A stretch of DNA of 39,812 nucleotides from Christensenellaceae bacterium Phil1 (lineage in GTDB: Bacteria; Bacillota; Clostridia; Peptostreptococcales; Anaerovoracaceae), in NCBI GenBank assembly GCA_963648745.1, contig CAVJEY010000004.1, positions 1 to 39,812 on the forward strand, in the 5' to 3' direction. The translations under genes and the position numbers were made by a program. The notes beneath the pieces are model-generated. The model worked only from the letters and a program-made list of their open reading frames with translations. It searched no databases and had not been told where the DNA came from. Positions 21,496 through 39,812 of the stretch are shown here, piece by piece. How positions within the stretch are numbered: the stretch's first letter is position 1; every line of letters starts with the position of its first letter.

Positions 21496-22752
21496 ATGAC
21501 AGACTATAAACATAGAGTAGCCGATGACATTTTAATCAGGAAACTTGAAGGCAAAGGTGCCGTGCTTATTGAAGGTCCTAAATGGTGCGGCAAAACAACT
21601 ACTGCGGAGCAGGTTGCAGCAAGCGTCCTATATATGGACAATCCCGAAAAGAAACAGCAGAACATAGCAATGGCAGAACTTAATCCTTCCAGGCTGCTGG
21701 CAGGTAACGTACCGCGGCTTATTGATGAATGGCAGCTTGCTCCTAAACTGTGGGATGCAATACGTTTTCAGGCTGATCATCGCGGTCTCACAGGTCAGTT
21801 CATACTTACAGGTTCTTCAGTGCCTGCTGATACTTCTGAAATAACTCATTCAGGCACCGGCCGGTTCACATGGCTTACAATGAGACCGATGAGCCTGTAC
21901 GAGTCGGAAGACTCCAGCGGTGATGTGAGTCTAAAGTCACTGTTTGACAGCCATACAGATATTGACGGGCAGTCGCACCTTGATATTGAACGGCTTGCAT
22001 TTCTTACATGCAGAGGCGGCTGGCCGCAGTCAATCAGAATGCGTGATGAAACAGCACTGGATCAGGCGTTTGATTACTATGATGCCGTAGTTCACTCCGA
22101 CATAAACCGCGCTGATAATATCGTCAAAAATCCCGAACGCGTAAAACGTCTGATGCGTTCATATGCGCGCAACCAGGGCGGACAGATACCCAACACTGTA
22201 ATTGCTCAGGATATCGCTGCCAATAAAGAAACTGCTGCACTGTATATCAGTGCTCTGAAAAAAATATTCGTTATAGAGGATATGCCCGCATGGAACCCTA
22301 ATCTGCGTTCTAAAACAGCAATACGTTCATCGGATACACGTTATTATACAGACCCTTCAATTGCTGCTGCCGCACTTGGTATCGGTCCTCAGGATCTGTT
22401 AGATGATCTTAATACTTTCGGGTTTTTATTTGAGACATTATGCATCAGAGATCTCAGGGTTTTTGCAGATGCTCTTAACGGTACTGTCTATCACTATCGT
22501 GACAAAAGCGGGCTTGAATGTGATGCCGTGGTTCACCTTAGAAACGGTTCCTACGGCCTTATAGAAATAAAGCTTGGCGGAGAACGTCTGATTGAGGAGG
22601 GTGCTTCAAACCTCACAGCCCTGTGCAGAAAACTTGACACCGATAAAATGAAAAAGCCTTCTTTTCTTATGGTTCTTACCGGTACCGGAGATTACGCATA
22701 CAGGCGCAGTGACGGCATCCTGATTGTACCCATAGGCTGTCTGAAAGACTAG
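21496..22752 (+). CDS. AAA-family ATPase with a DUF4143 C-terminal domain (AAA_14/DUF4143 type)
   Basis: Walker A GPKWCGKTT. The C-terminal LECDAVVHL..GLIEIKLG is the PD-(D/E)XK-like DUF4143 signature. Confidence 0.8.
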   Translation: MTDYKHRVADDILIRKLEGKGAVLIEGPKWCGKTTTAEQVAASVLYMDNPEKKQQNIAMAELNPSRLLAGNVPRLIDEWQLAPKLWDAIRFQADHRGLTGQFILTGSSVPADTSEITHSGTGRFTWLTMRPMSLYESEDSSGDVSLKSLFDSHTDIDGQSHLDIERLAFLTCRGGWPQSIRMRDETALDQAFDYYDAVVHSDINRADNIVKNPERVKRLMRSYARNQGGQIPNTVIAQDIAANKETAALYISALKKIFVIEDMPAWNPNLRSKTAIRSSDTRYYTDPSIAAAALGIGPQDLLDDLNTFGFLFETLCIRDLRVFADALNGTVYHYRDKSGLECDAVVHLRNGSYGLIEIKLGGERLIEEGASNLTALCRKLDTDKMKKPSFLMVLTGTGDYAYRRSDGILIVPIGCLKD

Positions 22753-22753
22753 A

Positions 22754-24001
22754 TTATACTTTAACTTCCGAGACAGGAGGCTTTTGCAGCATTACAGCCT
22801 CCTGCTCAAGTTTGCAGTCATTTATCAGCATATATTCCACAGCTTCACTGCATATCTCAGCATATTTTCTGTCATCTTCATCCTTATACTTTTCAAGCAG
22901 ATTTTCAAGCCTTTTTCTATCGCTTTGAGTAAGAGGTTTTGCAAACTCTCTGAACCTTTCCAAAGTATCTTTTCCCATATAAACAGGTTTAAAACCTATC
23001 CCGGTCTTTTCTCTTAAGTGATTGACAATATAGAAGCCTCCCGCATCAATATCACCAAAATGAAAATATGAACAGCCCGGATTATCATCATACACCTTTT
23101 TCAGGAAATTTCTTCTCGTCCTGTTATGAAACCCGCCCAGGTATATTACAAAATACTCACTGTTATTAAAGTCATGAAAGCTTGTAAGGTTTTCTACTGT
23201 TATAACCTTCCTGCCTGTCACGGCAACGCTGCTTAAATCTTTTAAGGTTTCAGAGGAAAGAGCCAGATCTCCCCTTATATTTTTCAGGTCAATATGCTGC
23301 CCTCCGAGAACAATTTCAGCGCAGCCTTTAATGTACACATATGTAGGAGTATTTACTATCCCGTTTTCTTCAAGAATATGTTCTTTTTCTTCAGATTCAC
23401 CATACTGATACAGCATGGACTGAACTTTACTTCTAAGTTCCTCGGCGGTTTTGGAATCATGAAAAAGCTTAATAGAAAAATCCCTTATATAGGTTTCTTC
23501 CTCATTTTCAAGCACTGCAGCAGCCATTTCAAGAAACTGCCGGTATTTTTCAATATCTCCATCATAAAATTCAACATTTCTGTTGCGTGCAATTCTTTTT
23601 TGCTGTTCTTTAAGATACAGAGTAAGGCTCTGATATCTGCTGTCTGTTCTGTCAGAGAGAATCCTGTCTATAACCGAAAGCAGCGACTCCTGTTTCTGCC
23701 TCCTCGGAACCCGTCCAAGCATACTGTAGCATTCACTGATTTTTTCATTTGCAAGAACAGCTTTTTTTATGGTTCCGTTTTTTTCGTATTCCAGCCGGAT
23801 AACGCCCGCTTCTTCAATTTCCAGAAGAGAATCATTTATCTCCCTGAAAAGATCATATTCGGAGTCATCTGCATATTGGGGGAATTTTTTTGCTACGATT
23901 ACCGCAAAGTTCTGCGACACCCTGTTTTCCCCAAGATAGCTTCTGCTCCTTTCATATTTGTTCAAAAGTTCATTCAGTACTGTTTTCTGATACCTGTCCA
24001 T
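22754..24001 (-). CDS. jetD: Wadjet JetD (Toprim/Topo VI-A-like nuclease subunit)
   Basis: C-terminal Toprim motifs VITVENLTSF (Glu) and FHFGDIDAGGF (DxD). Fourth gene after the SMC-like jetC. Confidence 0.85.
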   Translation of the reverse strand: MDRYQKTVLNELLNKYERSRSYLGENRVSQNFAVIVAKKFPQYADDSEYDLFREINDSLLEIEEAGVIRLEYEKNGTIKKAVLANEKISECYSMLGRVPRRQKQESLLSVIDRILSDRTDSRYQSLTLYLKEQQKRIARNRNVEFYDGDIEKYRQFLEMAAAVLENEEETYIRDFSIKLFHDSKTAEELRSKVQSMLYQYGESEEKEHILEENGIVNTPTYVYIKGCAEIVLGGQHIDLKNIRGDLALSSETLKDLSSVAVTGRKVITVENLTSFHDFNNSEYFVIYLGGFHNRTRRNFLKKVYDDNPGCSYFHFGDIDAGGFYIVNHLREKTGIGFKPVYMGKDTLERFREFAKPLTQSDRKRLENLLEKYKDEDDRKYAEICSEAVEYMLINDCKLEQEAVMLQKPPVSEVKV

Positions 24002-24014
24002 TTCGTATCCCCTG

Positions 24015-27000
24015 TTACAGATCGTATTCTTCTACAATACTTGCTCTGCCTGCTCTTATTGCTGTCAGTATTGTACCTACCTGTTCACCGATAATTTCGA
24101 TTTTAGCCGGTGGTGTCGCAAGTATAACCTGCAGATCCAGGCTGTTGAAAAACTCCATCATTGCTTTTATCCTTTCATCATCCATTTTATCAAACGCCTC
24201 ATCAAGCAGCATCAGTCTCACACTGTTTCCGAATCTGTAAAGCTGATAAAAGGACGCTGCTATTGCAACATAATACGGCACCTGGGTTTCGCTTCCGCTT
24301 TTTTCTCCGTATATATCGGAGAACTTCTGAAGAGAGCCGTCTCTTTTTCTTATTTCAATATCATAGTCCAGATATGATCTGTAATCCGTATATTCGGCTA
24401 CAATTCTGTCACCTTTGTCATCTCTGGTCATAAGTTTATCAAAGAGATCGGAAATCTCTTCTCTGTATTCGGCTTCAAAAGCTGCAGTCCAGAGGCTGTT
24501 GCCCTCCTGGTTGTTCTCAGATGTAATCATTTTATACAAGCCTTCTTTCTGCTTGTCAAAAGTGATTTTGAAATGATAGCTGTCATCCCCGTAATATATA
24601 TTATCAAGTGCCTTGTTGAGATTGCGGAATTCGTTTCTGGCAGCTTCGATATGCTCTTTCATTTTGGAAAGAAAATCACTTCTGAAAATTTCCTCACACT
24701 CTTCTTTTGCAGTTTTGAGTTTTTCTTCGTATTTTACAAGCTCAACCGATTTCAGTTTCTGTGCAGCCGAGATATATTCGTCAATTCCTTCTGTTCCCGA
24801 AGTAAAGTCGCAGCTGTAGTCATAATTAAATGTATACTGCTGTGCTTTGAGAGAATCTGTAAGCTGCATACGCTCGTTCTGAAACTGACTTCTCTGAGGC
24901 GTGAAATTTGATATTATTGTCTCCGGCATCTTTTTCCTGCGGTTATCCGAATATTTTTTCCCGGCCTCTTCATATGCCTTCTCATCATTATCCGCAAGGG
25001 CTCTGAGACTGTCTCTTTCGCTGTCATTTCTCGCTTTATATTCTGCAAGCTGCTTCTGCCCGGCTTCAATATCCCACGATGTTTTGCTTCTGTTTTCTCT
25101 GAATTTTTCCAGAGCGGCATTTACATCTTCCAGTTCTTTTTCTATCGCCTGCTTCTTTATTTCAAGCTCCAGGAGGGATGGATCTTTTTTTGCCTCCTTA
25201 AGCTCCGCTTTAATATTCGCCAGAGATTTTGTCTCTCTTGCCAGATCTGCAGGAGCATTCATATAAAGCTGTATAAGCTCAGGATTGACATCTGCCTCAA
25301 GCTTTATTATCTCATCATATATTATGCTGTTTTCTCTGAGTCTGCTTCGCTGTGCATTTTTTTCCTGCAGTTCTGCTTTTATATGCTCTATCTGCATCCT
25401 GAAAGCATTCTGACCTATATACGGATTCCTATATAACTTCGGATCCATATTTCTTACAACATAGCCCTGATAAAGCATACAGTCCGCCGTAACAGCAATC
25501 CTGTGCTCTTTAAGCTGTTCAACCCTGTCACAGCGCATTACTCTTCCCAGCAGATAGTCAATATATGCTTTTGCATATCTGTTTTCACTTTTTACAACAT
25601 ATGCCAGAGATTTATTGTCCGTCTCCTGACTGACTGTCAGCTTTCCTGTATTGATTATGCCCGCCGAATGTATGTTTTTTCTGTTTCTGTGGTAGCACTG
25701 CAGTGCTGCGTCATAGTATTCCGGCTCTACAACAAGATAAAATTTCTGTGTGTTAAGATAGCCCTCAACAGCATTTCTCCACGTTTCATCTGTTATTTCA
25801 AGAAGCTCTGAAAGTATATAAACTTTTGATGAGATTCCCCTTGCGCTGAATTCTTTTTCTATGTATTCTTTTAATTTTGCCGTGTTTTCAGGATATGTAA
25901 GTATCTGCTTGTGAAGTCTCCTGTTTTTCTCCTGAAGAATCTGAATCTGACTGTCAAGTTCCTTTAATCCGACAGCCAGTTTTGCTCTTTCTTCATGAAG
26001 TGACATCATCTCCTGTTTTGAAAAGAGTTTCAGAGCCTCAACGGTTTCATATTTCCTGTCATCATAATGCTCGGATACAAGTGTATTAAGCTGCTCTGCC
26101 GACACCGGAGTTCTGCCTGCCTCTTTAAGCTTTTTGAGGAATTTTTCCAGGGCTGCCACCTGAACCTTGAGCTGCCCTGCCCGCACCTGCGCTTCTTTTA
26201 TGCTGCTTTCTGCTGCTGCAGCCTTATGCTGCAGTTCCTCTAAAAGTCTGCTTGCTTTATTTTCATGGATAGATACATTTACAGCCAGCAGTTTCTCTGA
26301 AGCAGCTGCGCTTTCTTTTTCAAGCTGCGTGATTTTAATATTAAGACCTGAAATCATCTGCTCTTTTGCAATTATATCTTTTTCGATGGCAGCAAGTTTT
26401 TCTCTGAGCATATCTATTCCCGCTATACGCAAAAGAAAATCATTGACTTTAATATCATAATCTTTTGCTTCTATCCGGTCATAGGTATTTATTATTCCTT
26501 CAAGGCATTCAAGCTGCCTGTTGCTTTTTATGAGAAGCTCTTCAAGCTCGCTCAGGGTTTCAATATTTTCTCTAAGCGCCGCAACATCTATTTTTTCTTC
26601 GGAAAGTACAAATTTATTTATAAATTCCTTAACATTATCCATAGGTTTGAATGCAAGAGATTTGGGAATTATGTCAAAGAATCTGTCATCGAGATTTCCC
26701 ATTCTTCTCTTGAATCTGTCTCTTGCAGCATAATTCTGATCTATATACCTGATGCGTCTGCCTCTTACCCTGAATTCTTCTGCAAGAGCAGCTTTTCCAT
26801 GCACCACAAATGACATATCCTCAAGCCTGCACTCCTCAACATACCACCTGGTTACAACCCTGCTTTCTTCATCAGGTGAAAGCATATGCACACCCATTAC
26901 AAAATATTTTCCTGTCTTTTCCTCAAAAAACTCCAGCGCCACATTGGCAGGAACTGCATTTTTCCTGAGATATGTCTCTCCGACATTACCTGTTTTACAG

Positions 27001-27224
27001 CGCACATACCCTTTAAGATCTCTGTTGCCCTTTTCATTTGCCGCAACGTTGAATTTCCTTGTATTTGTAGTCAGCACCAGCTGTATGGCATCAAGAATTG
27101 TTGATTTGCCGGCAGTATTCTCTCCGCTTATAAGGGTGGAACCGTGCATTGTAATGCATTCGTTTTCAAAGAAGTGCCAGTTAATCAGCCTCACCCGGCA
27201 TAATATCTTCTTCTGTTTCTCCAT
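24015..27224 (-). CDS. jetC: Wadjet JetC (SMC/MukB-like ATPase)
   Basis: N-terminal LINWHFF..GENTAGKST (Walker A), about 700 aa of K/E-rich coiled coil, and C-terminal LMLLDEAFDKMD (Walker B). The ATG at 27224 is preceded by AGGAGG and overlaps the jetB 3' end by 44 nt. Confidence 0.88.
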   Translation of the reverse strand: MEKQKKILCRVRLINWHFFENECITMHGSTLISGENTAGKSTILDAIQLVLTTNTRKFNVAANEKGNRDLKGYVRCKTGNVGETYLRKNAVPANVALEFFEEKTGKYFVMGVHMLSPDEESRVVTRWYVEECRLEDMSFVVHGKAALAEEFRVRGRRIRYIDQNYAARDRFKRRMGNLDDRFFDIIPKSLAFKPMDNVKEFINKFVLSEEKIDVAALRENIETLSELEELLIKSNRQLECLEGIINTYDRIEAKDYDIKVNDFLLRIAGIDMLREKLAAIEKDIIAKEQMISGLNIKITQLEKESAAASEKLLAVNVSIHENKASRLLEELQHKAAAAESSIKEAQVRAGQLKVQVAALEKFLKKLKEAGRTPVSAEQLNTLVSEHYDDRKYETVEALKLFSKQEMMSLHEERAKLAVGLKELDSQIQILQEKNRRLHKQILTYPENTAKLKEYIEKEFSARGISSKVYILSELLEITDETWRNAVEGYLNTQKFYLVVEPEYYDAALQCYHRNRKNIHSAGIINTGKLTVSQETDNKSLAYVVKSENRYAKAYIDYLLGRVMRCDRVEQLKEHRIAVTADCMLYQGYVVRNMDPKLYRNPYIGQNAFRMQIEHIKAELQEKNAQRSRLRENSIIYDEIIKLEADVNPELIQLYMNAPADLARETKSLANIKAELKEAKKDPSLLELEIKKQAIEKELEDVNAALEKFRENRSKTSWDIEAGQKQLAEYKARNDSERDSLRALADNDEKAYEEAGKKYSDNRRKKMPETIISNFTPQRSQFQNERMQLTDSLKAQQYTFNYDYSCDFTSGTEGIDEYISAAQKLKSVELVKYEEKLKTAKEECEEIFRSDFLSKMKEHIEAARNEFRNLNKALDNIYYGDDSYHFKITFDKQKEGLYKMITSENNQEGNSLWTAAFEAEYREEISDLFDKLMTRDDKGDRIVAEYTDYRSYLDYDIEIRKRDGSLQKFSDIYGEKSGSETQVPYYVAIAASFYQLYRFGNSVRLMLLDEAFDKMDDERIKAMMEFFNSLDLQVILATPPAKIEIIGEQVGTILTAIRAGRASIVEEYDL

Positions 27225-27822
27225 TATCTTTTCCTCCTGTATAGGTCTGCAGTCTTTTTTCTGCCGCCTCATAATATTCATTGATATTCTCAACCGGTAT
27301 CGCCATTAAAACTGACGGATATATTATTATTCTCGTGTCTGCACTGTTCACATCGCTGTCAAGATTGGTAATAATATTATACTTTCTAAACAGTGATATC
27401 ATCCGCTTTTCCATGCCCTTATCCATATTGGGCTTGGATTTTATTCTGAGCATGGAGTATTTCTCGCGTATCTCCTCCATTATAACTGTCACTTCCTCCG
27501 AAAAAGTTGAAAGCTCTTTCCTTTTTTCAAGATATAAAAGTCTGAGTATCAGCAGGAGTATGCTGTCTGATTTGTTAAGAGAAAGTCTTCCTGTACCAAA
27601 CTGGTTTACAAGGGCCGCCACGCCCTGATCTTCATTAAGTCTGATATCATAGCCCAGCAGATCAAAATATTCTCTGAACATATTTATATTCTGTCTTACA
27701 AATATATAGTCTTTTCTGGTATCTTCTTTTTTCTTCAGCAGAAAGCACTGGTTGAGCAGTCTGTTGGCTGCTGTCCTGAATTTTTCTTTCTGTGCAGCTG
27801 ATTCATTCAGTATTTCAAACAT
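27181..27822 (-). CDS. jetB: Wadjet JetB (DUF4194, MukE/MksE-like)
   Basis: 213-aa ORF located between jetA and jetC. The LLNQCFLLKK..YIFVRQN..YFDLLGYDIRLNED pattern is typical of DUF4194. Confidence 0.8.
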   Translation of the reverse strand: MFEILNESAAQKEKFRTAANRLLNQCFLLKKKEDTRKDYIFVRQNINMFREYFDLLGYDIRLNEDQGVAALVNQFGTGRLSLNKSDSILLLILRLLYLEKRKELSTFSEEVTVIMEEIREKYSMLRIKSKPNMDKGMEKRMISLFRKYNIITNLDSDVNSADTRIIIYPSVLMAIPVENINEYYEAAEKRLQTYTGGKDNGETEEDIMPGEAD

Positions 27823-27828
27823 TTAATT

Positions 27829-29232
27829 CTACCTCTTGTATATAATAAATTCCGGTATTTCAAATTCTCCCGTCTGTATTCTGCTGTTCAGGCGCTCTAT
27901 AGTATACTGATTGGCTCTGTTGCCCGCATATATGCTTATATATACAAGCCTTATGACATCTCTCTTTGTCTGTACAGGAATTTCACTGACATTGATTTCA
28001 TCTCTGTCACCAAGGAGATTTATTACGTATTCATTGATGTTTTTTCTCGAAAACTTCCGCCTGTTGCGTGCCCTGAGCGCTTCTTTGTACAAAGCTCTGC
28101 TTTCTTCTGACATAACCATATCGCTCCCGAGCTCATCTACCTGTCCGGTCTTTTTTAATACGGGCATGGTTTTAAGTGATTCAGGAGAAATATAGCTCTG
28201 AGGATACAGGGAAAATAAGCCGCGCAGTTCCTCTGCTGTTTCAGGAGAGAACTCTGCTGTCTCATTTTTATTCAGTTCTTCGGCAAGGCCGCTTAATATC
28301 CTTGAAAGTTTTCCTTCTGTATTATTGCCTGCCGAAAGCAGAAATCTTGCTCTCATTACTGCATTTCTCTGATACCTTGTATGTTTGCGGTCTATCTCCT
28401 CTATAATATCGTCGAGGCTGTAAAAGGCGGATTTGATGTCCAGAATTATATTTACAAGTGCATCATAGGCTTCGTCCTGATCATCATTCTGCTCAATTTC
28501 CATGTAGCCTTTCGTCCCTCTTTCCATTATGCTTTCATCTTCCAGTATTTCATCAAGTTTTCTTACAATGGCTGTACGAAAATACGATATATTCTCACTT
28601 GTTTTCATTCGCAGATATGCTTTTGAGCCTATATTCTGATGGTATTCAAAGAACAGATCCAGAACCTCTGAAGCATCCATGTCATTTGTCTGTTTTTCCA
28701 TGTGTCTTTTGATGCTTGCATTCAGTTTTTTGAGTTCTGATATAAGGCGGTCTGTGTTTTCCTTCACACCCTTTATAATCAGTTCATAGGGCCTGCTGTA
28801 AAGCTCACTGTTCTGAAGACTTGCATGTATCTGAGAAATAAGTCCCTGATACTCTGTTTCTTCATTTCTGATCAGAGTATTCATGCTTTCTATCACAGGA
28901 ACAGCATACTCAAAGAGTACAACATTAAGCTGATGATCTGTCTCCTGCTCGTATTCTATCCAGCCGCAGCTTTTGAGCATTGCAACTACACCGTTTGCTT
29001 TTTCTCTCGCATCACTTACCAGTGTTTCATCATCACTGAAAGTCATTTCGGTATCATCTGATTCAAAGTATTCCGTAAGCGCCCTTATAACCACTTCACG
29101 GCTTACTCCATAGGATATTTCGGCCTTGAATGTATTGAATATAAGCATTATGCAGTCTGCATATTCTCTGCGATATTTGCTTGTGAGAGGCTTGAAAAAA
29201 TCCTCCGGCAGTATATTAAAAAGATTGTTCAT
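27829..29232 (-). CDS. jetA: Wadjet JetA (kleisin-like MukF/MksF analogue)
   Basis: 467-aa first gene of the four-gene array, with size and position typical of JetA. The stop codon lies 6 nt before the jetB ATG. Confidence 0.75.
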   Translation of the reverse strand: MNNLFNILPEDFFKPLTSKYRREYADCIMLIFNTFKAEISYGVSREVVIRALTEYFESDDTEMTFSDDETLVSDAREKANGVVAMLKSCGWIEYEQETDHQLNVVLFEYAVPVIESMNTLIRNEETEYQGLISQIHASLQNSELYSRPYELIIKGVKENTDRLISELKKLNASIKRHMEKQTNDMDASEVLDLFFEYHQNIGSKAYLRMKTSENISYFRTAIVRKLDEILEDESIMERGTKGYMEIEQNDDQDEAYDALVNIILDIKSAFYSLDDIIEEIDRKHTRYQRNAVMRARFLLSAGNNTEGKLSRILSGLAEELNKNETAEFSPETAEELRGLFSLYPQSYISPESLKTMPVLKKTGQVDELGSDMVMSEESRALYKEALRARNRRKFSRKNINEYVINLLGDRDEINVSEIPVQTKRDVIRLVYISIYAGNRANQYTIERLNSRIQTGEFEIPEFIIYKR

Positions 29233-29304: not shown

Positions 29305-31320
29305 TTACAGTTCTTCCTTCCGTATCATCCCATGACTTATGCAGAATCCGTATGATAAAACCCTCCTGCTGCTTCCAAAGACTGCAGTGACAGTATCTCC
29401 TTCAACAGACATTACCATTCCTGTACCAAATGATTTGTGTATAATCACATCTCCCGGTTCAAGCTCCATATTCACGGAAGTTTCATATACAGACCTGCCC
29501 GGCTGGGTTTTCCTGAGTATCTTTTCCATAAGATATACAAACGGCATATAGCAGTCGCTGTATTTAAGTATCATCAGGCTCTCCTTTGCTCTCGTAAGAC
29601 CTACATAAAAAAGCCTCCTTTCCTCTTCAGTGTCTGCCTCCGCACCCGGCATAATTCCGTCAATCGCATCTGCAATTATGACATTGTCGTATTCAAGACC
29701 CTTTGCCGAATGAATGGTGGACAGTATGACATCCGCACCATAATCAGGCGCTTTGTTTTCAATATCATATTCAAGTTCCTCAAGCATATTGAGAAACTCC
29801 CCGGCGCTCATATCCTCTGATGCAAGGCATTTGAGGATGTACATCTTCTCCGCATCTGTGTTTCTTGTGCCGGAAATAAGTGTTTCTACTGTTTCCAGCG
29901 CCTCCGGGGCTGACATGGTTTTAAGCATCCTGATATATGAGGCTGTGCTCCTGATGACCCTGCTTCTGCTGCCGTCCTTTACAAGCAGTTCAAGGCAGTT
30001 CCATATACCTTCTCTGCTTCTGCCGTTTTCATACATGCCTACTGCTGTCTCTGCCATTTTTTTAGTTATATAGCAGCCTGTTTTAGAGTATGTGTTCATA
30101 AACAGCTCTGTGTTTCCCATATCAAAGGAGAGCTTTATCAGATCGGTTACATACCGTACTGTCCTGCCTGTAAAAAATGCTGTTTCCATACCTCTGCAGT
30201 TATATGGTACTCCTTCTTTTTTGAGTCTGTATATGTACGGCAGCGCGCTGTCATTGTTTCTGTAAAGTATGGCTGTCTGTCTGCCGCTGTAAATGCTTCT
30301 GATATGGTTTATGACTCTGTCATACTGCTGGTGCCTTTTTCCCATATTGTCTGTTATCACGGGCTTTGCTTCCGGCTTTGCAGGCAGCATTTTCTTCTTG
30401 TGCCTGTTCCGGTTGTGTTTAATAAACTGTGCGGCTGCTTTTACAATATATCCGTCGGATCTGTAGTCGGTTTCAAGGAGCAGCACCTGCCCGCCTTTGT
30501 ATGTTTTTTCAAATTCCATCAGAGCCTGCGGGTATGCAGCTCTGAACCCGTATATGCTCTGGTCTTCGTCGCCTGCCATAAACAGTTCATTTCTGCCGCA
30601 TACAAGCATCTGAATTATATAGTGCTGTATTTTAGATGTGTCCTGCGCCTCATCAACCAGCAGATATCTGTATCTGTTTCTGAAGTATTCACGGACTCTG
30701 CTGTTTTTTCTAAGTATACGGAATGCGAACACCAGCTGGTCGTCAAAGTCCATCAGACGGTGTTCACCAAGCCTGCGGCAGTACCTCTCATATATATTCT
30801 CTATTGAAATTCTGTCCTCTGTAACTGTTACCGCTCTTATCTCCTCTCTGTTAAGAAGCATATTTTTAATATATGCTATATTCTGCTGTATTTCTCTGAT
30901 GTCAGCCTCATCAGGCCATTTCCCTATCTGTGATATGTAAATCTCCCTTATAGCTGGAAGACTGTCTTCTATGAGTTCAAAGCTGCTGCCGCCTGTAATA
31001 TATGTGTAGTACCTGATTATTTCGCTGCAAAGGGAGTTTATGGTCTTAAATGTCACCGAATCTGAATATTCCCCGCCGAAGTATTTTTCAAATCTGGCTT
31101 TCATATCCCCTGTCGCCGCATTTGTATATGTCACGGTAAGTATATGCTCAGGCCTGATTCCTTTTACATATATCATATATCCGAGCCTTGCAACAAGTGC
31201 TGTGGTTTTGCCGGAGCCGGGCACGGCAAGAAGCAGACAGAGATTGCCGCCTTTAACAGCCTCCGCCTGCTGGTCATCAAGCGTCAGATTGAATTTTTCT
31301 ATGTACTCTTCAAATGTCAT
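29305..31320 (-). CDS. UvrD/PcrA-like SF1 DNA helicase with a C-terminal Tudor-like tail
   Basis: Motif I AVPGSGKTT, motif II LLVDEAQDTS, motif Ia/III context, and C-terminal HKSFGTGMVMSVEGDTVTAVF. Confidence 0.88.
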   Translation of the reverse strand: MTFEEYIEKFNLTLDDQQAEAVKGGNLCLLLAVPGSGKTTALVARLGYMIYVKGIRPEHILTVTYTNAATGDMKARFEKYFGGEYSDSVTFKTINSLCSEIIRYYTYITGGSSFELIEDSLPAIREIYISQIGKWPDEADIREIQQNIAYIKNMLLNREEIRAVTVTEDRISIENIYERYCRRLGEHRLMDFDDQLVFAFRILRKNSRVREYFRNRYRYLLVDEAQDTSKIQHYIIQMLVCGRNELFMAGDEDQSIYGFRAAYPQALMEFEKTYKGGQVLLLETDYRSDGYIVKAAAQFIKHNRNRHKKKMLPAKPEAKPVITDNMGKRHQQYDRVINHIRSIYSGRQTAILYRNNDSALPYIYRLKKEGVPYNCRGMETAFFTGRTVRYVTDLIKLSFDMGNTELFMNTYSKTGCYITKKMAETAVGMYENGRSREGIWNCLELLVKDGSRSRVIRSTASYIRMLKTMSAPEALETVETLISGTRNTDAEKMYILKCLASEDMSAGEFLNMLEELEYDIENKAPDYGADVILSTIHSAKGLEYDNVIIADAIDGIMPGAEADTEEERRLFYVGLTRAKESLMILKYSDCYMPFVYLMEKILRKTQPGRSVYETSVNMELEPGDVIIHKSFGTGMVMSVEGDTVTAVFGSSRRVLSYGFCISHGMIRKEEL

Positions 31321-31380: not shown

Positions 31381-32382
31381 TTATCTGTCGCTTTTCACAG
31401 CTTCTTTTCTGGCCTGTTTTTCGGTTTTTTTAATCGTCTTTAAGTATTCGACTTCGACAGGAGAAAGTGTTGCCTCCTGATATTTTCTGTATTCGGCCTT
31501 TGCTTTTTCTGTTGCGGTATAATGCGATATTTTCCCCGAATCAGACAGCAGTTTTCTACCGCCCGAAGACAGTACAGCATCAAGCTGCTCTATATAGTCG
31601 CTCATATACATAGGTCTGTGCTCAATTGCATTAATCTCAGCCAGGTCAAAATAACCCGAAACAAGTCTGCTCATTATTTTCAGTTCATCTTCGTCCAGAT
31701 AATTCTTCGCTATTGTAATATCCTTCATTACAGGCATATCACCCGAAAATGTTTTTAATCCCATAAAAGATTTCTCTGCGTCCGCTCTTTCAAATATTAC
31801 CTCTGCCGCAGTATGACCATGCGCTGCATAGTGCAGTTTGTTTTGAACAATCCTGAAAAAATGTACGGATTCGCTGCTTCGCGGATCATAGTCGACACTT
31901 GTAGCATATAAATCCAGAACCTGCCTGTACAGGACTTTTTCCGATGATCTGATATCTCTTATTCTGTCTAAGAGTTCTTTCCAGTACATTCCTCCACCAT
32001 TGCCTTTAAGGCGTTCATCGTCCATCGCAAAGCCTTTGATAATATACTCTTTCAATCGTTCTGTTGCCCATTTTCTGAAACTGGTAGCTATTGACGACTT
32101 AATCCTGTATCCCAGAGATATAATCATATCAAGGTTATAATGCTTAACAGTATAGGTTTTGCCATCAGCGGCAGTTGTTCGGAAATTCCGAACAACTGAA
32201 TTTTCTTCAAGCTCCCCTTCTTCAAAAATATGTTTTATATGTTCACTGACATTCGATTTGCTGGACTGGTATAAATCGGCCATCTGCTGCTGCGTAAGCC
32301 ATACTGTTTCATCCTCCAGTTTAACCTCAATGCCTGCACTTCCGTCTTTGTTTGTATATATGAGAATTTCACTTTCGTTCAT
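31381..32382 (-). CDS. RhuM-family protein (the family often annotated as a DNA-binding protein in type I R-M clusters)
   Basis: N-terminal IEVKLEDETVWLTQQQMADLY..SNVSEHIKHIF and NLDMIISLGYRIKS are characteristic RhuM blocks. The RBS AAGGAG overlaps the upstream stop codon. Confidence 0.85.
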   Translation of the reverse strand: MNESEILIYTNKDGSAGIEVKLEDETVWLTQQQMADLYQSSKSNVSEHIKHIFEEGELEENSVVRNFRTTAADGKTYTVKHYNLDMIISLGYRIKSSIATSFRKWATERLKEYIIKGFAMDDERLKGNGGGMYWKELLDRIRDIRSSEKVLYRQVLDLYATSVDYDPRSSESVHFFRIVQNKLHYAAHGHTAAEVIFERADAEKSFMGLKTFSGDMPVMKDITIAKNYLDEDELKIMSRLVSGYFDLAEINAIEHRPMYMSDYIEQLDAVLSSGGRKLLSDSGKISHYTATEKAKAEYRKYQEATLSPVEVEYLKTIKKTEKQARKEAVKSDR

Positions 32383-32397: not shown

Positions 32398-32616
32398 TTA
32401 ATAAGGTAGTTTATCTGTAAAAGTATATTTGCCCTTGCCATATCCTTTTTGAGGTTTAATAACACCATATTCAAGCATCTTCTTTATCAGAGCCGATGCC
32501 GGTGATGCAGTTATGTCAAGAATATTCATCACATCACTTCTTCCAAAAATCCTGTCATTTCCCAGTGCATTCCTGAGCATATGAATATTCTTTTGGGTTT
32601 TCCCCGAAACATTCAA
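32398..32616 (-). CDS. Small winged-helix protein, probably the detached C-terminal wHTH of the upstream Fic protein
   Basis: The track start at 32616 is TTG and overlaps the Fic stop codon; the first ATG is at 32580. The sequence DVMNILDITASPASALIKKMLEYGVIKPQKGYGKGKYTF looks like a wHTH. Confidence 0.55.
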   Translation of the reverse strand: MNVSGKTQKNIHMLRNALGNDRIFGRSDVMNILDITASPASALIKKMLEYGVIKPQKGYGKGKYTFTDKLPY

Positions 32617-33428
32617 TGTCCTGTCTGCACTCCCAATGTCCTGTTCTGAAGTTCATTTTTTTCACCAAGCAGCAGATTCTTTAGAAACAGTTCCAGATAC
32701 TCTGTAGTCTCGTGAACGCCATTAACAAGGTCATTATAGTTTGCACGCACCAGTGCATTTCTGAAATACCATGCGTTTTGTGCAAATATATCATTTGTCA
32801 CATCAAAGCCCAGTGTTCTCAGATATTTTATAAAAAACACCGCAGTTGTTCTGGTATTTCCTTCACCAAAAACATGAATCTGCCACAATCCGGATACAAA
32901 TGCTGCAATATGATGTATTATTTCATCCATGGAAAGTCCTTTGTAGCTGTACTTTTTTTCCTGCAGAATATCATACTCTAAGGTTGCCTCAAGTTCTGAT
33001 GCGCTCCCGTAGGTAACTGTCGCTCCGTCTAATATCCATTCTTTTTTGGTAATGTTGTATTCTCGTATTTCACCTGCATTCTCATATATACCCTGAAACA
33101 GTTTTTTATGAACAGTCAGATACTCTTTTGGGGTGAGTGAAAATGATCTCTCTGACAAAAGTTTTGCTATTCTCTGAGAGACTTTATCTGCCTCTTCCAC
33201 ACGACCGTATTCCGGATTTTCTTCATAGTAGGCTTCAAGCAGCTCTCCGGCTTCGTCTATAGTGATTTTGCCTTCAATATTCTGTATTGCAGTTCCTGCA
33301 AGATATTCTGAAGTCTTAAGTCCGTCCACATCCTGAAGCCCTATTGCGGTACGCCATGCATAGGCTCTGTCACGCCTGCTGGGCTCTGACTGCTTTATAC
33401 ATTCTCTAAAAGGATCCTGTGAACACAT
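32613..33428 (-). CDS. Fic/DOC-family protein with a non-canonical active-site motif
   Basis: The Fic motif reads HVFGEGNTRTTA, against the canonical HxFx(D/E)GNGRxxR. 271 aa, ATG start. Confidence 0.85.
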   Translation of the reverse strand: MCSQDPFRECIKQSEPSRRDRAYAWRTAIGLQDVDGLKTSEYLAGTAIQNIEGKITIDEAGELLEAYYEENPEYGRVEEADKVSQRIAKLLSERSFSLTPKEYLTVHKKLFQGIYENAGEIREYNITKKEWILDGATVTYGSASELEATLEYDILQEKKYSYKGLSMDEIIHHIAAFVSGLWQIHVFGEGNTRTTAVFFIKYLRTLGFDVTNDIFAQNAWYFRNALVRANYNDLVNGVHETTEYLELFLKNLLLGEKNELQNRTLGVQTGH

Positions 33429-33727: not shown

Positions 33728-34738
33728 TCAATCCTGTTGAGAGTTTTTGACTTCTTCCTCTGCTATATCGTACAATTCAGCCAGTTTCCTCTGCAGAATA
33801 CTCTTATCTATCAGTTTTGTCTTATACTCAGCAATCATTGTCTGAGATAAACTTCTGCTCAAAGAGTATTCCACAACATCTGTATCTGCATTTTTACATA
33901 GAATCATCCCAACACTCGGGTTCTCTTGCGGCTTCTTAACATCTCTGTCCAATGCTTCCAGATAGAAATCCATCTTCCCCATATATTCTGGTTTAAAATC
34001 ATCAATTTTTAAATCAATCGCGACCAGGCATCGCAGTTCTCTATGATAGAAAAGAAGATCTACATAATAATCATTATTTCCAACTTGAACGTGATACTCT
34101 TCATCAACAAAAAGGAAGTCTCTCCCAAATTCAAGCAGAAATTTCTTCATATTTTTCAAAATTGCTTTTTTCAAGTCATACTCTTTATAAGGCTCTGGAA
34201 GATCTAGAAATTCCAACATATACATATCTCGAAGCACACCAGTCATATCTTTGCTCTCAATCGCTGATGAAGCCTTACCATTTGATAAAAGCAGACGCTC
34301 GTAATATCCACTGTCAATCTGTCTTGCCAGCTCTTTTGCCTTATATTTCTCTTTGGAAGCCAGTTTCAGGTAAAATTCCTTTTCTTCATAGCTTTTGGTT
34401 TTGGATATAATATGCATATTATTTGACCATGTATTTTCTCTCAACAGCGTTGAGAGTTCTGGTCTATCTTTATATGTTTCATAAAATTGTTTCATCCTCC
34501 ATATATTCTGTGATGAATAGCCTCTGATGCCAGGCTCTCTGCTAAGGATATATTCGGACAAGGCTTTAACTGTAGATTTTCCCCAGCCGTTTACTTCGAT
34601 TTGCTTTGAAACATACTCTCCAATAGCCCAATATAATTCTATGACAGTGGAATTAACCTGGTACTCCGCTTTATGCTTTGCCGAATAGATCATTTCAAGC
34701 ACATCATCAAATAATCTTGCAATTTCATTTTCATTCAT
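33728..34738 (-). CDS. DUF1016 / YhcG-family PD-(D/E)XK nuclease-like protein
   Basis: Characteristic blocks ELYWAIGEY, NIWRMKQFYETY, YYVDLLFYHRELRCLVAIDLK (D..D/ExK) and GKMDFYLEALD. Confidence 0.85.
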   Translation of the reverse strand: MNENEIARLFDDVLEMIYSAKHKAEYQVNSTVIELYWAIGEYVSKQIEVNGWGKSTVKALSEYILSREPGIRGYSSQNIWRMKQFYETYKDRPELSTLLRENTWSNNMHIISKTKSYEEKEFYLKLASKEKYKAKELARQIDSGYYERLLLSNGKASSAIESKDMTGVLRDMYMLEFLDLPEPYKEYDLKKAILKNMKKFLLEFGRDFLFVDEEYHVQVGNNDYYVDLLFYHRELRCLVAIDLKIDDFKPEYMGKMDFYLEALDRDVKKPQENPSVGMILCKNADTDVVEYSLSRSLSQTMIAEYKTKLIDKSILQRKLAELYDIAEEEVKNSQQD

Positions 34739-34786: not shown

Positions 34787-34872
34787 TCTTAATAATCCTA
34801 CCCTTCAAAATAGTTATATATACTCTCCTCAACCTCATCCTTCATACTGAATATGATATTAACCACCGGAAG
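34787..34872 (-). repeat. 86-bp direct repeat B (the functional 3' end of the helicase gene plus 11 nt of 3' UTR)
   Basis: See repeat A. It differs from A at 3 positions: 1 in the UTR and 2 synonymous. Confidence 0.9.
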
Positions 34873-37671
34873 CTCTTTGCCTTTGTCATTTGTAATTGTC
34901 TTTTGAACATACTCCGCAGGCTCCATATCTCCCATATAGTAAAAATCTGTACCTTCACCGTCGCTTTTTTTGACAAACAGCAATATCCTTAATCCGGAAG
35001 TTTCATATTCTCTGATTGCTTCAACCTCTTTGTGCTCCAGCGTTACCCGGTTTCTTGTCATCCAGCTGAAACAGCCCGGATTAATAAAAGAATCCTCATA
35101 TTTGGTACTGCCGGCTATATCGTCATTTTTATGATATGTAACAAATACCGGACATGTATTGTATTTAATCCTGTAGCCGTACATCGTGGATTCTTCGTTT
35201 TTGTCCCAGTTAAGTATCCTACATACGTCTTTTCTTGAATATTTGTCATACAGTATAAACCCGCTGCGAAATCTGCTGCTGTCAAAGTCTGTTATCATTT
35301 TTTTGACGCAGTATGAAATCATGTCCGAAAGATATGTATTAAGTGGCTCGCTGTTTATCCTGTCAAAGTATGACCTGTCCATAACAAACCTGCTGCCTTC
35401 GACAGAAATATTCTGCTTCACATCATATGCCGCTATATCGCCGTCCTTCATAAACTGTCCATTAAGGTTGTTAACTGCAGAAGCTGCTGTATCCATATCA
35501 GGTTCATATCCAAATCTGTCATACACAAGTGTTTTGAACTCATTAATATCAGTCTGCTGCTTTGCTTTGAGCAACACCAGTAATGCAGCCTCTTCAAACC
35601 TCTTGCAGTTAAGTATTTCAGACGAGTAAAAAGCTAAAAGCTTCCTGTCATCATCCGCCATATCCGGATGGCTTTCGTTATCTATACTTTTTGCAAAATC
35701 ATAATATGAACTCTTGTTTTTGTATTCTACAAACGCATATGGCTCTCTACCGCCCTGCTCTACAAAGTCTGTCATCATCGGAACTCTTCCGAGACGATAT
35801 TTCATAAGCTCATATTCTTTTTTGAGCTCTGCCTTGGTTGAAAGATTGGTTTCTTCTATGGCTTTGTATATGCGTTCCTTTGAAATTCTGTCAAAGTTTA
35901 TGGTCGAGCAGCCCGGTATCGTACTGCTGCCTGTGTTTATGAGCTTGCGAATAGTATCCTTGTTGTATGAACGCTCTCCGTACAAGGCTATCGGCACAAG
36001 ATAGTTGTTGCTGTAATTTCCTATGAAATCTATTACGGTCAGGTATTCTTTGCCCGGATATTTCCTGAGGCCTCTTCCAAGCTGCTGCACGAATATTATC
36101 GCGGACTGAGTCGGCCTTAACATTATAAGCTGGTTTACAGACGGAATATCCACGCCCTCGTTAAAAATATCGACTGTAAATATGTAGTCAAGATACTCAT
36201 TGCCGTCGCTTTCAAGCAGCTCTATGGCTTTTTCTCTCTGCTCCTCGCTGTCGGCTCCGCTTAGTGCGACGGTCCTGTAGCCTCTGGCATTAAATGCATC
36301 TGACAGTTCTTTTGCTTCTTTGTTTCTGCTGCAGAATACAAGGCCCTTCACTCTGCCCTCAGAGCTACTGTAGTATCTTGCATTGTCTATTATATGAGAT
36401 ACCCTCTGCTCACACACCAGACTGTTAAAATCGCTGTTATCATCAAGAATATTGCCATCTACCGATATTTCTGTCACTCCAAAATAGTGAAACGGCACAA
36501 GCATATTTTCTTCAAGAGCCCTGTGCAGTCTGATTTCGTAAGCTATATTGTAGTCAAACAAGCTGAATATATCAAAGCCGTCTGTTCTCTCAGGGGTGGC
36601 TGTCATTCCAAGCATAAATTCAGGCCTGAAATACTCTATTATTTTTGTATAGGTCGCCGCGCCTGCTCTATGTACTTCGTCTATAATTATGTAATCGAAA
36701 TAATCCGGTGCAAATTGCTGCAGGTTATCATCCTTTGACATAGTCTGTACCATTGCAAATGTATAGTCATAGTCAAAATGCTTATTGCTGCCTGAAACTA
36801 CTCCCGCATTTATATCATATCCCAGCACACGCTTAAAGCTCTCCATTGCTGCCCTCGCTATGTTTTCTCTGTGAACAAGGAACAACACTTTTGAGGCTTT
36901 GAACTTCCTGACATCAAAAGCAGACAAATAGGTTTTGCCTGTTCCTGTTGCAGATATCAGCAGGGCTTTTTGTTTGCCTTCTTTTCGGAGTGCTTCCAGC
37001 TGCCTTAAAGCTTCGTACTGCATTTTGTTTGGATTTATTTTTTTGAGTGCAATTACAGGAGTTTGTTTTTCTATCGTTTTAACCTGTGCATATATTTTTT
37101 CGTATTCCTCAATCCATTCTTCCGTAACTTCAGTTGCGTTTGCAAAAGTACGCTCAAATTCCTTAAAAATATTCTGCATTACAGAACCGTTTTCAAGAGA
37201 AGATAATTTGAGGTTCCATTCTTTGTTCTCCGCCAACGCTTTTTGAGTGAGGTTACTTGAGCCTATGATAAAAGAATAGCTGTCCTTGTGTCTGAATATA
37301 TATCCTTTGGCATGAAAATCTTCATCTGTTACTATTTTTAACTGTATATTTTTGAATTTCAAAAGACGTCTGAGTGCTCCGGGTTGGGTAAAATTCTGAT
37401 ACTGTGATGTTATGATTTTGCCTTTGACGCCTTTTTCCTCAAGCTCTTTTAATGTGTTAATCAACGATGCAACACCGCTACCTGTAATAAATGCTACAGA
37501 AAAATAAAATTCATCACATGCTATGAGCTCGCTCTCTATGCTTGTAAGAACTTTCATTCCTCTTTTGTAATCATTTACAAGAAGCTTCGGGTTGTATTTC
37601 TCGATAGATTTCATATTGCAGTCAATAAAACCGTTGGTCAGACCTGCTGCAAGATTTGTACTGATATCCAT
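34798..37671 (-). CDS. PLD(HKD)-nuclease / SF2 (ResIII-type) helicase / DUF3427 three-domain protein
   Basis: HKD motif HAKGYIF..GSSNLT (about aa 120-141). Helicase motifs ATGTGKT (241-247), DEVH (331-334), TATP (357-360) and QQLGRGLR. About 300 aa of C-terminal region recognised as DUF3427-like. Confidence 0.85.
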   Translation of the reverse strand: MDISTNLAAGLTNGFIDCNMKSIEKYNPKLLVNDYKRGMKVLTSIESELIACDEFYFSVAFITGSGVASLINTLKELEEKGVKGKIITSQYQNFTQPGALRRLLKFKNIQLKIVTDEDFHAKGYIFRHKDSYSFIIGSSNLTQKALAENKEWNLKLSSLENGSVMQNIFKEFERTFANATEVTEEWIEEYEKIYAQVKTIEKQTPVIALKKINPNKMQYEALRQLEALRKEGKQKALLISATGTGKTYLSAFDVRKFKASKVLFLVHRENIARAAMESFKRVLGYDINAGVVSGSNKHFDYDYTFAMVQTMSKDDNLQQFAPDYFDYIIIDEVHRAGAATYTKIIEYFRPEFMLGMTATPERTDGFDIFSLFDYNIAYEIRLHRALEENMLVPFHYFGVTEISVDGNILDDNSDFNSLVCEQRVSHIIDNARYYSSSEGRVKGLVFCSRNKEAKELSDAFNARGYRTVALSGADSEEQREKAIELLESDGNEYLDYIFTVDIFNEGVDIPSVNQLIMLRPTQSAIIFVQQLGRGLRKYPGKEYLTVIDFIGNYSNNYLVPIALYGERSYNKDTIRKLINTGSSTIPGCSTINFDRISKERIYKAIEETNLSTKAELKKEYELMKYRLGRVPMMTDFVEQGGREPYAFVEYKNKSSYYDFAKSIDNESHPDMADDDRKLLAFYSSEILNCKRFEEAALLVLLKAKQQTDINEFKTLVYDRFGYEPDMDTAASAVNNLNGQFMKDGDIAAYDVKQNISVEGSRFVMDRSYFDRINSEPLNTYLSDMISYCVKKMITDFDSSRFRSGFILYDKYSRKDVCRILNWDKNEESTMYGYRIKYNTCPVFVTYHKNDDIAGSTKYEDSFINPGCFSWMTRNRVTLEHKEVEAIREYETSGLRILLFVKKSDGEGTDFYYMGDMEPAEYVQKTITNDKGKELPVVNIIFSMKDEVEESIYNYFEG

Positions 37672-38078
37672 TATATTTCTCCCTGATTTACCAATGCCTC
37701 AACAACCGGTCTGTCTGCTGCTGCCCAGTCGATTTCGCTAAGGCTGTGCAAATCTTTCCATACAGCGTTTATGTGCTCTTTTAGCACTATATGCCTGTCC
37801 TCCATATTACAGATAAAGCAATGCATTCTTATGGCAAAGTCTGGGTAGGTATGCTCTACGGTATAAAAATGCTTCATAGACTCTGCCGGAATATGCACTT
37901 CCATTTCCTCTATAAGTTCTCTGTGCAAAGCTTCCGCAGGTGTCTCCCCCTGCTCTATTTTGCCGCCCGGAAATTCGTATTTGTATGACACATAATCATA
38001 TTTGCCTTTGCTTCTCTGCGCGCATAATATCTCGCCATTATTCACAAGTATAGCGCCTGATACTTCTATTGTTTTCAT
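37671..38078 (-). CDS. NUDIX hydrolase (MutT/NudG-like nucleoside triphosphate pyrophosphohydrolase)
   Basis: NUDIX box GGKIEQGETPAEALHRELIEEMEV. The stop codon TAA shares 1 nt with the helicase ATG (TAATG). Confidence 0.88.
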   Translation of the reverse strand: MKTIEVSGAILVNNGEILCAQRSKGKYDYVSYKYEFPGGKIEQGETPAEALHRELIEEMEVHIPAESMKHFYTVEHTYPDFAIRMHCFICNMEDRHIVLKEHINAVWKDLHSLSEIDWAAADRPVVEALVNQGEI

Positions 38079-38303
38079 CCCTGCTGCCTCTTAATTCTTT
38101 TTGATAGTTACATTCTACCACGCCCAAGTGTATTTGTGCAAAAAAGTTGCCCTCACATACCCCTGCAGGCTATACTTTGATTCAAATTTTGTGCATCAGA
38201 ATTATCAGCTCCGCATCTTTCCGGGCAGTTACATAATACACTGCATATTGTCCCTAAAACGGTACATTATTTACAGGTAACAAAATCTGTTTCCGCTCAT
38301 ACT

Positions 38304-39510: not shown

Positions 39511-39812
39511 TCAGATACAGAATGCAGCATAGAGAGGAACGATTTTTTTATTGTCCTCAAAGCCGAAGTTTTTGGCAGAGAGCCTGATGGCATAGGCGGG
39601 CCTGTAGGTGTCCATATAGACCTTTAAGCTCTTGGCTCTGGTGTTGTCGGCAGATTTAACCTCAATGGGAATAAGCTGCCCGTCACGCTGAATGATAAAA
39701 TCAATTTCAGCACTGCGCCCGGACTCCCAATAGCAGGTGCGGTAGCCGTTAATGGTAAGCTGCACATTGACATAGTTCTCCGCCATACCGCCCTTGAAAT
39801 CGTTGATTTCCT
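39511..39812 (-). CDS. 3' part of a second AAA ATPase / DUF4143-family gene (the 5' end lies outside the window)
   Basis: The reading frame is open to the window edge. SAEIDFIIQRDGQLIPIEVKS is the DUF4143 PD-(D/E)XK-like block. Confidence 0.7.
   Translation of the reverse strand, partial: EINDFKGGMAENYVNVQLTINGYRTCYWESGRSAEIDFIIQRDGQLIPIEVKSADNTRAKSLKVYMDTYRPAYAIRLSAKNFGFEDNKKIVPLYAAFCI

Follow-up and report, generated by a model that had tools for sequence, protein, structure and literature searches.

A SauUSI-like type IV restriction gene with a coupled NUDIX companion in a Christensenellaceae defence island, and a possible role for the companion as a nucleotide-pool safety partner

SauUSI from Staphylococcus aureus is an ATP-dependent enzyme that cuts DNA carrying 5-methylcytosine (5mC) or 5-hydroxymethylcytosine (5hmC). 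In staphylococci it forms the chief obstacle to genetic manipulation and to horizontal transfer, and its relatives are spread over thousands of lineages of bacteria and archaea. The structure paper (7CLG) divides the enzyme into a phospholipase D (PLD) nuclease (residues 1-191), a superfamily 2 (SF2) DExH ATPase (221-617), a coupler (618-805) and an SRA-fold target-recognition domain (TRD; 806-953). In the TRD model, 5mC is flipped into a pocket formed by Y831, F841, I842 and W868, while D858 reads the base and M829 fills the gap that it leaves. Residues H119, K121, N139 and E150 are essential by mutagenesis (Xu et al. 2011 and a further study). Xu et al. (2011) also described a conserved MutT/NUDIX gene, SAUSA300_2432, beside sauUSI and counted at least 60 pairs of this kind. 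A role in pyrophosphate breakdown was their guess, and they wrote that the function "remains to be examined". Deletion of nudix in S. aureus Newman gave a viable strain that was still not transformable (Monk et al. 2012), so the NUDIX protein is dispensable for restriction. Additionally, a 2025 S. suis preprint reports that PADLOC family PDC-S07, to which this NUDIX protein belongs, co-localises with type IV restriction-modification (R-M) genes in 23/23 cases. The neighbour of SauUSI has remained unexplained since 2011, and its role is what is still of interest in such loci. Here we analyse one of these pairs in a 39,812-nucleotide (nt) stretch of Christensenellaceae bacterium Phil1 (contig CAVJEY010000004.1, positions 1 to 39,812; "the window" below means this whole stretch), in which a gene for a 135-amino-acid (aa) NUDIX protein precedes one for a 957-aa SauUSI-like protein.

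The 957-aa protein matches SauUSI (PDB 7clg_A) at E 2.5e-228 and 763 bits, with residues 10-955 aligned on 11-951, and fits the PADLOC model mREase_IV (PDLC03658) at E 3e-235 over model positions 9-951 of 953. This strong homology identifies it as an orthologue-level relative of SauUSI and a predicted type IV modification-dependent restriction endonuclease (REase). An exact-sequence look-up of the protein gave no record. The family to which it belongs comprises at least 7999 clusters at 90% identity, counted at E 1e-20 or better. Pfam assigns PLDc_2 (8.3e-13, aa 68-173), ResIII (2.1e-40, 211-362), Helicase_C (2.5e-12, 437-536) and DUF3427 (1.7e-78, 681-955). Residues H120, K122, N140 and E151 align to H119, K121, N139 and E150 of SauUSI and are invariant in the SauUSI-family alignment; the GSSNLT motif lies at aa 137-142. 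The SF2 motifs SATGTGKT (240-247; Walker A, K246), DEVH (331-334), TAT (357-359) and QQLGRGLR (529-536) are invariant across that alignment as well. By collinearity, DUF3427 corresponds to the SauUSI coupler plus the SRA-like 5mC-reading domain. Within an ungapped block at an offset of +2, the SauUSI pocket residues M829/Y831/F841/I842/D858/W868 become Y831/Y833/F843/V844/D860/W870 in the window protein: four of the six are identical, one is conservative (I842 to V) and one is different (M829 to Y). Membership in DISARM, Dpd, Pbe or type I R-M was considered and rejected, since the PADLOC matches to DrmC (4.9e-8), DpdK (3.6e-4), PbeA (1.5e-33, over the helicase) and REase_I (2.9e-24) are partial and far weaker than that to mREase_IV; the companion genes of these four systems were looked for and none was found in the window.

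The two genes meet in a TAATG, where base 37671 is common to the TAA stop of the NUDIX gene and the ATG of the restriction gene (Table 1). This overlap indicates translational coupling of the pair. A Shine-Dalgarno-like GGGAG within the 3' end of the NUDIX gene stands 7 nt upstream of the restriction-gene ATG. Moreover, a consensus scan places a candidate promoter with 9 of 12 consensus positions about 34 nt upstream of the NUDIX ATG, and a scan between the restriction gene and the next gene gave no terminator-like site there, both being weak evidence. An earlier first-pass annotation, made from the letters of the window, had drawn the same two reading frames and their TAATG junction, and both stand. 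The NUDIX box, HKD, GSSNLT, Walker A, DEVH, TAT and QQLGRGLR motifs that it quoted are all present in the sequence, and Pfam agrees with each of its domain calls (NUDIX, HKD/PLD, SF2 helicase and DUF3427).

The companion protein has a NUDIX box of the form G39-x5-E45-x7-R53-E54-L-x-E57-E58-x-E-V (Pfam NUDIX E 3.6e-16); in place of the final consensus Gly it has Glu, and the active 3GWY has Asp. PADLOC model PDC-S07 recognises both the window NUDIX (E 5.2e-44) and Bacteroides fragilis Q5LBB1 (E 2.2e-42), whose structure 3GWY (Q5LBB1_BACFN) is the closest solved relative at E 5.1e-36 and 46% identity. The two proteins have in common the signature QR..EFPGGK..RE..EE..YPDF..M..C..EH..W..DWA.AD.P. 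At the position of MutT N119 and NudG D118, which MutT and Orf135 studies are reported to identify as the base-reading site, an Asp occurs in the window NUDIX (D122), in 3GWY and in 77/77 linked NUDIXes. An identity as MutT was rejected because the protein scores 82.9 bits against the equivalog TIGR00586, below its cut-off of 97.9, and has Asp instead of Asn at the position that reads 8-oxoguanine. Likewise, it is not NudG: it reaches 73.5 bits against PRK10546, whose cut-off is 156, and NudG falls outside its clade.

A neighbour-joining tree of 36 taxa, rooted on E. coli MutT and bootstrapped 200 times, nests 3GWY within the NUDIXes that are linked to an REase. MutT and NudG fall outside the group descended from the last common ancestor of the window NUDIX and 3GWY in 197/200 bootstraps, and so does the separate clade of NUDIXes that lie downstream of or convergent with their REase in 176/200. 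Biochemical data on 3GWY come from Nguyen et al. (2016), who screened Q5LBB1 against 74 Nudix substrates and found near-diffusion-limited activity on 5-Me-CTP (6.7e6 M-1 s-1), 5-Me-dCTP (4.8e6 M-1 s-1) and 5-hydroxymethyl-dCTP (4.4e6 M-1 s-1). The alpha-beta bond is cleaved, 5-OH-dCTP is used about 50-fold less well, and values for canonical NTPs are much lower. These authors read Q5LBB1 as an anti-mutagenic sanitiser and drew no link to restriction. E. coli NudG, the next outgroup, likewise prefers 5-methyl-dCTP. A linkage of 3GWY itself to an REase was considered and rejected, since the genes of the B. fragilis group stand alone beside a DprA-like gene; specificity is therefore transferred by phylogenetic bracketing and not by common context. 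On this bracketing, the window NUDIX is predicted to be a 5-methyl/5-hydroxymethyl-(d)CTP pyrophosphohydrolase.

Genome sampling shows how closely the two genes travel together. One genome per species was searched with the SauUSI-family alignment as query, and the best 80 of at least 590 loci were kept; the REase loci are 45-62% identical, and two are cut at the REase 5' end, which leaves 78 informative. The 80 loci come from Bacillota, Bacteroidota, Fusobacteriota, Gammaproteobacteria, Spirochaetota, Bathyarchaeota, Thermoproteota and Methanolobus. A NUDIX gene is adjacent in 77 of the 78, far above chance: it lies directly upstream on the same strand in 70, directly downstream on the same strand in three and directly downstream in convergent orientation in four, with none within 6 kb in the remaining one. 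The stop-to-start distance is at most 13 nt in 68/68 NUDIX-first loci, and the genes overlap in 39 of these 68. The first-pass annotation had taken the two genes for one functional unit, a view that it proposed to check by counting upstream NUDIX genes and that would fall if the adjacency were not conserved; these counts bear it out. They also confirm a linkage that has been in print since 2011.

A reverse sample, obtained by scanning metagenomes with the NUDIX-family alignment (36-56% identity to the window NUDIX), gave 60 informative loci. The NUDIX has a SauUSI-like gene next to it in 39 of these, which include both gene orders, a PDC-S41-like gene in one and neither in 20, whose neighbours are heterogeneous. 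Individually sampled NUDIX clusters give a similar range, some REase-linked, some in housekeeping-like contexts and one overlapping a PDC-S41 gene. The linkage is thus asymmetric: hardly any REase lacks the NUDIX, and the NUDIX often stands without the REase.

In a second common arrangement, the NUDIX gene lies downstream of its REase gene, either co-directional or convergent (loci L013, L023, L037, L040, L063, L075 and L076 and many of L110-L172 in our numbering). The NUDIXes of L013, L023, L037, L063, L075 and L076 make up a clade of their own in 182/200 bootstraps, and that of L040, outside that test, stands apart in the tree. Members of this clade have neither the KFxYxS insertion nor the YPDF motif of the window/3GWY group. 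Some linked REases align to the family only in part (e.g. L110-L112, L150, L159, L160 and L175), and these may carry different C-terminal readers.

The NUDIX family also pairs with PADLOC candidate PDC-S41 (E 1e-240), as at L087 (5001-7402), L093 (2595-7783) and L170. The PDC-S41-like protein has about 625-665 aa and combines an N-terminal PD-(D/E)xK-like motif (D83...E96-F-K98) with a Schlafen-group-3/DUF2075 helicase; a PDB sequence search with it gave no match. The NUDIX and PDC-S41 genes overlap by 4 nt at L087, and the order at L093 (Tepidibacter hydrothermalis) is PDC-S41-like gene, NUDIX, SauUSI-like gene. Such pairing suggests that PDC-S41 may be modification-dependent too. Among the unlinked NUDIX genes (L106-L175), one has an HpaII-type restriction endonuclease as neighbour (E 4.5e-130) and one a Bpu10I-type enzyme. 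HpaII systems use a cytosine-5 methyltransferase, which makes this neighbourhood another setting where sanitation of 5-methyl-dCTP would make sense.

Two published facts are newly joined here, namely the strict NUDIX-REase linkage and the hydrolysis of 5-methyl/5-hydroxymethyl-(d)CTP by one family member; the searchable literature yielded no paper that ties a SauUSI-partner NUDIX to 5-methyl-dCTP hydrolysis. Together they lead to a hypothesis on how stray modified nucleotides are kept from provoking autoimmunity by modification-dependent nucleases. In the restriction arm, the SRA-like domain would flip out 5mC or 5hmC in incoming DNA, the flipped base would switch on the SF2 ATPase for translocation along the DNA, and a dimeric PLD nuclease would shred the modified molecule. 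In the protective arm, the NUDIX would convert 5-methyl-dCTP, 5-methyl-CTP and 5-hydroxymethyl-dCTP to monophosphates. Modified dCTP could arise from the breakdown of restricted methylated DNA, from phage metabolism and, as we infer, from turnover of m5C-containing RNA. By keeping it out of the pool, the NUDIX would prevent replication and repair from writing SauUSI targets into the chromosome, a protective role like that of a methyltransferase but exerted at the level of the deoxynucleoside triphosphate (dNTP) pool. Depletion of 5-hydroxymethyl-dCTP (5hm-dCTP) and 5-methyl-dCTP (5m-dCTP) could bring a secondary, non-exclusive benefit against cytosine-hypermodifying phages.

Several published results bear on this proposal. 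Polymerases incorporate 5-methyl-dCTP and 5hm-dCTP as well as they do dCTP, and degraded methylated DNA is the likely source of these nucleotides. A 2025 preprint on SauUSI shows that a single hemimethylated site is enough for translocation and cleavage, and it considers self-cleavage only through acquisition of a methyltransferase. Ready incorporation and the sufficiency of one site together mean that stray modified dCTP would mark the chromosome for self-restriction. The modifications that SauUSI targets, 5mC and 5hmC, are those that 3GWY clears from the pool, and this match of specificities supports a safety role. With the NUDIX gene first in the operon and translationally coupled, the NUDIX would be made whenever the nuclease is made. 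A safety role would also explain the near-obligate linkage from the side of the nuclease, the NUDIX-first coupled order, the persistence of linkage after a change of gene order, the dispensability of the NUDIX for restriction, and the viability of its deletion in media without a source of 5mC.

Other observations weigh against the proposal. The specificity is borrowed from a homologue that is 46% identical and encoded by a stand-alone gene. The proposal presupposes that bacteria generate significant 5m-dCTP and that the hosts have kinase activity on 5m-dCMP. No linked NUDIX is known for McrBC, McrA or Mrr, the other 5mC-dependent type IV enzymes. At one locus (L071, 5986-8835), in a Haloplasma contractile metagenome-assembled genome, a SauUSI-like gene of 949 aa is intact, lacks any NUDIX within 6 kb and is preceded by 1.46 kb of 21% GC content with no open reading frame (ORF) of 90 aa or more. 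Divergent REase relatives are under-sampled, since only the best-scoring 80 of at least 590 loci were kept. Additionally, S. aureus survives the loss of nudix with its SauUSI left in place (Monk et al. 2012), which means that the NUDIX is not an essential antitoxin under laboratory conditions. On balance, we put the whole chain, from restriction module to pool-level safety partner, at about an even chance of being right.

A different emphasis would make the NUDIX mainly offensive, hydrolysing the 5hm-dCTP and 5m-dCTP pools of T4-like and XP-12-like phages and so complementing the REase. 3GWY is as active on 5-hydroxymethyl-dCTP, a nucleotide that belongs essentially to phage metabolism, as it is on 5-methyl-dCTP. 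The NUDIX is among PADLOC's stand-alone defence candidates (PDC-S07), and its family also pairs with the nuclease-helicase candidate PDC-S41. Moreover, surveillance of the 5hmdCTP pool is named in a 2025 review as a defence opportunity still to be discovered. This account nevertheless leaves unexplained why the REase is rarely without a NUDIX while the NUDIX is often alone in housekeeping-like contexts, and phage dNMP kinases could re-phosphorylate the product. Deletion of nudix also left the transformation barrier unchanged, although that assay involved no phage. We consider a mainly offensive role rather unlikely, if a serious contender. The NUDIX could instead be a general MutT-like house-cleaner, or a handler of SauUSI's ATP, dATP or pyrophosphate, with no relation to cytosine modification. 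Its weak matches to the MutT and NudG models fit such a role, and suggestions along these lines exist: pyrophosphate breakdown after ATP hydrolysis (Xu et al.) and degradation of mutagenic NTPs (Monk et al.). The same matches fall below both equivalog cut-offs, however, and every linked member has Asp where MutT reads 8-oxoguanine with Asn. Free pyrophosphate is not a substrate of NUDIX enzymes, which counts against pyrophosphate handling in particular. A generic sanitiser would also not be expected to stay tied to one restriction family across phyla and archaea and in two gene orders, and we judge this explanation improbable.

Direct regulation of the REase by the NUDIX, as a protein partner or inhibitor or through removal of a nucleotide cofactor or signal, would suit the matched stoichiometry that tight translational coupling suggests, and NUDIX domains do occur in signalling-type conflict systems. 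Yet SauUSI has full activity by itself, both in vitro and as a clone in E. coli, which makes such regulation unlikely, and the structural and single-molecule work needed no partner. Many loci have the NUDIX downstream or convergent, hence uncoupled, and the module contains no signal-generating enzyme. The first-pass annotation had mentioned nucleotide-derived signals as possible substrates; this finds no support, the nearest characterised relative being a 5-methyl/5-hydroxymethyl-(d)CTP pyrophosphohydrolase, and we regard direct regulation as highly improbable. The same annotation had read the pair as an unnamed two-gene system, a nucleotide pyrophosphatase working with a nuclease-helicase that fitted no named system. 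The domain architecture and island context are as it described them. Each of the two genes has a PADLOC model of its own, mREase_IV and PDC-S07, an outcome that the annotation itself had named as speaking against its reading; the large protein matches SauUSI 7CLG, and reports of the linkage go back to 2011. Judged by homology, SauUSI-family membership supersedes the notion of an unplaced system, which is now barely credible.

We take a tentative view, at slightly less than even confidence, of SauUSI-type restriction as a two-component system in which the NUDIX acts as a pool "immunity" factor, perhaps also depletes phage dNTPs, and forms a portable module that PDC-S41 may use as well. If this proposal is true, the NUDIX would open a new category of "immunity" component, directed at the pool instead of at DNA, and modification-dependent restriction enzymes would gain their first described partner dedicated to self-protection. 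The proposal would also explain why PADLOC PDC-S07 looks like a defence gene, and SauUSI-like genes cloned without the NUDIX may prove toxic in hosts that carry 5mC. The window itself has an ordinary annotation: a type IV restriction module in a defence island, with a known NUDIX companion.

The pair sits at the edge of this island, which has sulfate-assimilation genes on one flank and a cotJABC spore-coat operon on the other. PADLOC models cover the pair and its neighbours, in keeping with the earlier description of a defence module inside a defence island, and the co-directional array into Fic/RhuM genes, a UvrD-like helicase and Wadjet was found as described. The stretch from Wadjet to the restriction gene is taken up by three consecutive single-gene PADLOC candidates, RhuM, Fic and YhcG. 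The type I Wadjet system is complete (JetABCD, 22754-29232, minus strand); the listed JetC ORF overlaps JetB by about 110 nt, which indicates that the true JetC start probably lies further downstream. No GajA-like gene adjoins the GajB-like helicase, and no cytosine-5 methyltransferase was found in the window. One DUF4143 gene flanks the island and part of a second lies at the end of the window, so related genes lie on both sides of the island plus cotJ operon. Elsewhere in the window, a carboxylesterase is present as two overlapping ORFs (5125-5574 and 5508-6743, plus strand) that match consecutive parts of Pfam COesterase; the split (5125-6743) probably marks a pseudogene with a frameshift, or else an error in sequencing. 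A HicB-like antitoxin gene lies at the start of the window (100-501, plus strand); a HicA partner, if there is one, would be encoded before the window begins or by a small ORF.

Table 1. Features of the NUDIX-restriction gene pair and of the surrounding defence island (window positions)
Feature	Position	Strand	Basis
NUDIX hydrolase gene, 135 aa, PADLOC PDC-S07 family	37671..38078	-	ORF, Pfam and PADLOC
SauUSI-family type IV restriction endonuclease gene, 957 aa (predicted 5mC/5hmC- and ATP-dependent)	34798..37671	-	7clg_A, PADLOC and Pfam
TAATG stop/start overlap of both genes	37669..37673	-	Read from sequence
GGGAG Shine-Dalgarno-like sequence for restriction gene, within 3' end of NUDIX gene	37679..37683	-	Sequence reading
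Candidate promoter of the pair: TGCACA, 17-nt spacer, TAGAAT plus TG extension	38112..38140	-	Consensus scan
PLD-family nuclease domain, about aa 1-192, catalytic H120/K122/N140/E151	37096..37671	-	Pfam PLDc_2 and SauUSI alignment
SF2 DExH helicase-like translocase ATPase, about aa 211-619	35815..37041	-	Pfam; limits from SauUSI
Coupler domain, about aa 620-807, N-terminal part of Pfam DUF3427	35251..35814	-	Collinear with SauUSI 618-805
SRA-like target-recognition domain, about aa 808-957, predicted 5mC pocket Y833/F843/V844/D860/W870	34798..35250	-	SauUSI alignment
YhcG/DUF1016 PDDEXK nuclease, PADLOC PDC-S02	33728-34738	-	PADLOC
Fic, PADLOC PDC-S72	32613-33428	-	PADLOC
RhuM, PADLOC PDC-S05	31381-32382	-	PADLOC
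UvrD-family helicase, best PADLOC match GajB, E 5e-69	29305-31320	-	
Type I Wadjet JetA	27829-29232	-	
Type I Wadjet JetB	27181-27822	-	
Type I Wadjet JetC (TTG start)	24015-27293	-	
Type I Wadjet JetD	22754-24001	-	
AAA_14/DUF4143 ATPase, PADLOC PDC-S01, island flank	21496-22752	+	
Second DUF4143 gene, C-terminal part, cut by window edge	39511-39812	-	

The folds of both window proteins follow from their homology to the solved structures 7CLG and 3GWY. Structurally, the restriction gene of the window resembles SauUSI in length class (957 vs 953 aa), in full-length collinearity and in its upstream NUDIX gene. Both proteins combine a PLD nuclease, an SF2 DExH ATPase, a coupler and an SRA-like TRD; the catalytic H/K/N/E set is kept, and five of the six modelled 5mC-pocket residues are identical or conservative. 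Several distinctions remain. The host is a spore-forming anaerobic Firmicute, the DNA-inserting Met-829 is replaced by Tyr, and the overlapping TAATG junction contrasts with the 2-nt spacer of S. aureus, TAATATG, taken from a primer sequence in Monk et al. (2012).

The NUDIX has its closest counterpart in Q5LBB1/3GWY, through the PDC-S07 model, the KFxYxSxxYEFPGGK insertion, the YPDF and DWAxADxP motifs and the nesting of 3GWY in the REase-linked clade. Unlike the window gene, the Q5LBB1 gene stands alone beside a DprA-like gene, with no restriction neighbour. NudG (Orf135) and MutT have the same small single-domain NUDIX fold and Nudix box, and NudG additionally has the Asp at the base-reading position and the preference for 5-methyl-dCTP. 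Both differ in lying outside the clade (197/200 bootstraps) and in having no linkage to a restriction gene, while MutT, whose substrate is 8-oxo-dGTP, also carries Asn at the base-reading position.

Functionally, the analogy with the methyltransferase of classical R-M systems is one of role only: each would be a linked partner that spares host DNA, and the nuclease is rarely found without it. In contrast to a methyltransferase, the NUDIX would act on the pool and not on DNA, would prevent the mark, and is not essential under laboratory conditions. Defences that deplete nucleotides by dCTP deaminase or dGTPase, together with human DCTPP1, also attack the dNTP pool and change what enters DNA; DCTPP1, which clears 5-methyl-dCTP, is reported to control this nucleotide and thereby DNA methylation. 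DCTPP1 has a MazG-like rather than a NUDIX fold, and the NUDIX is predicted to target modified dCTP species and no canonical pool.

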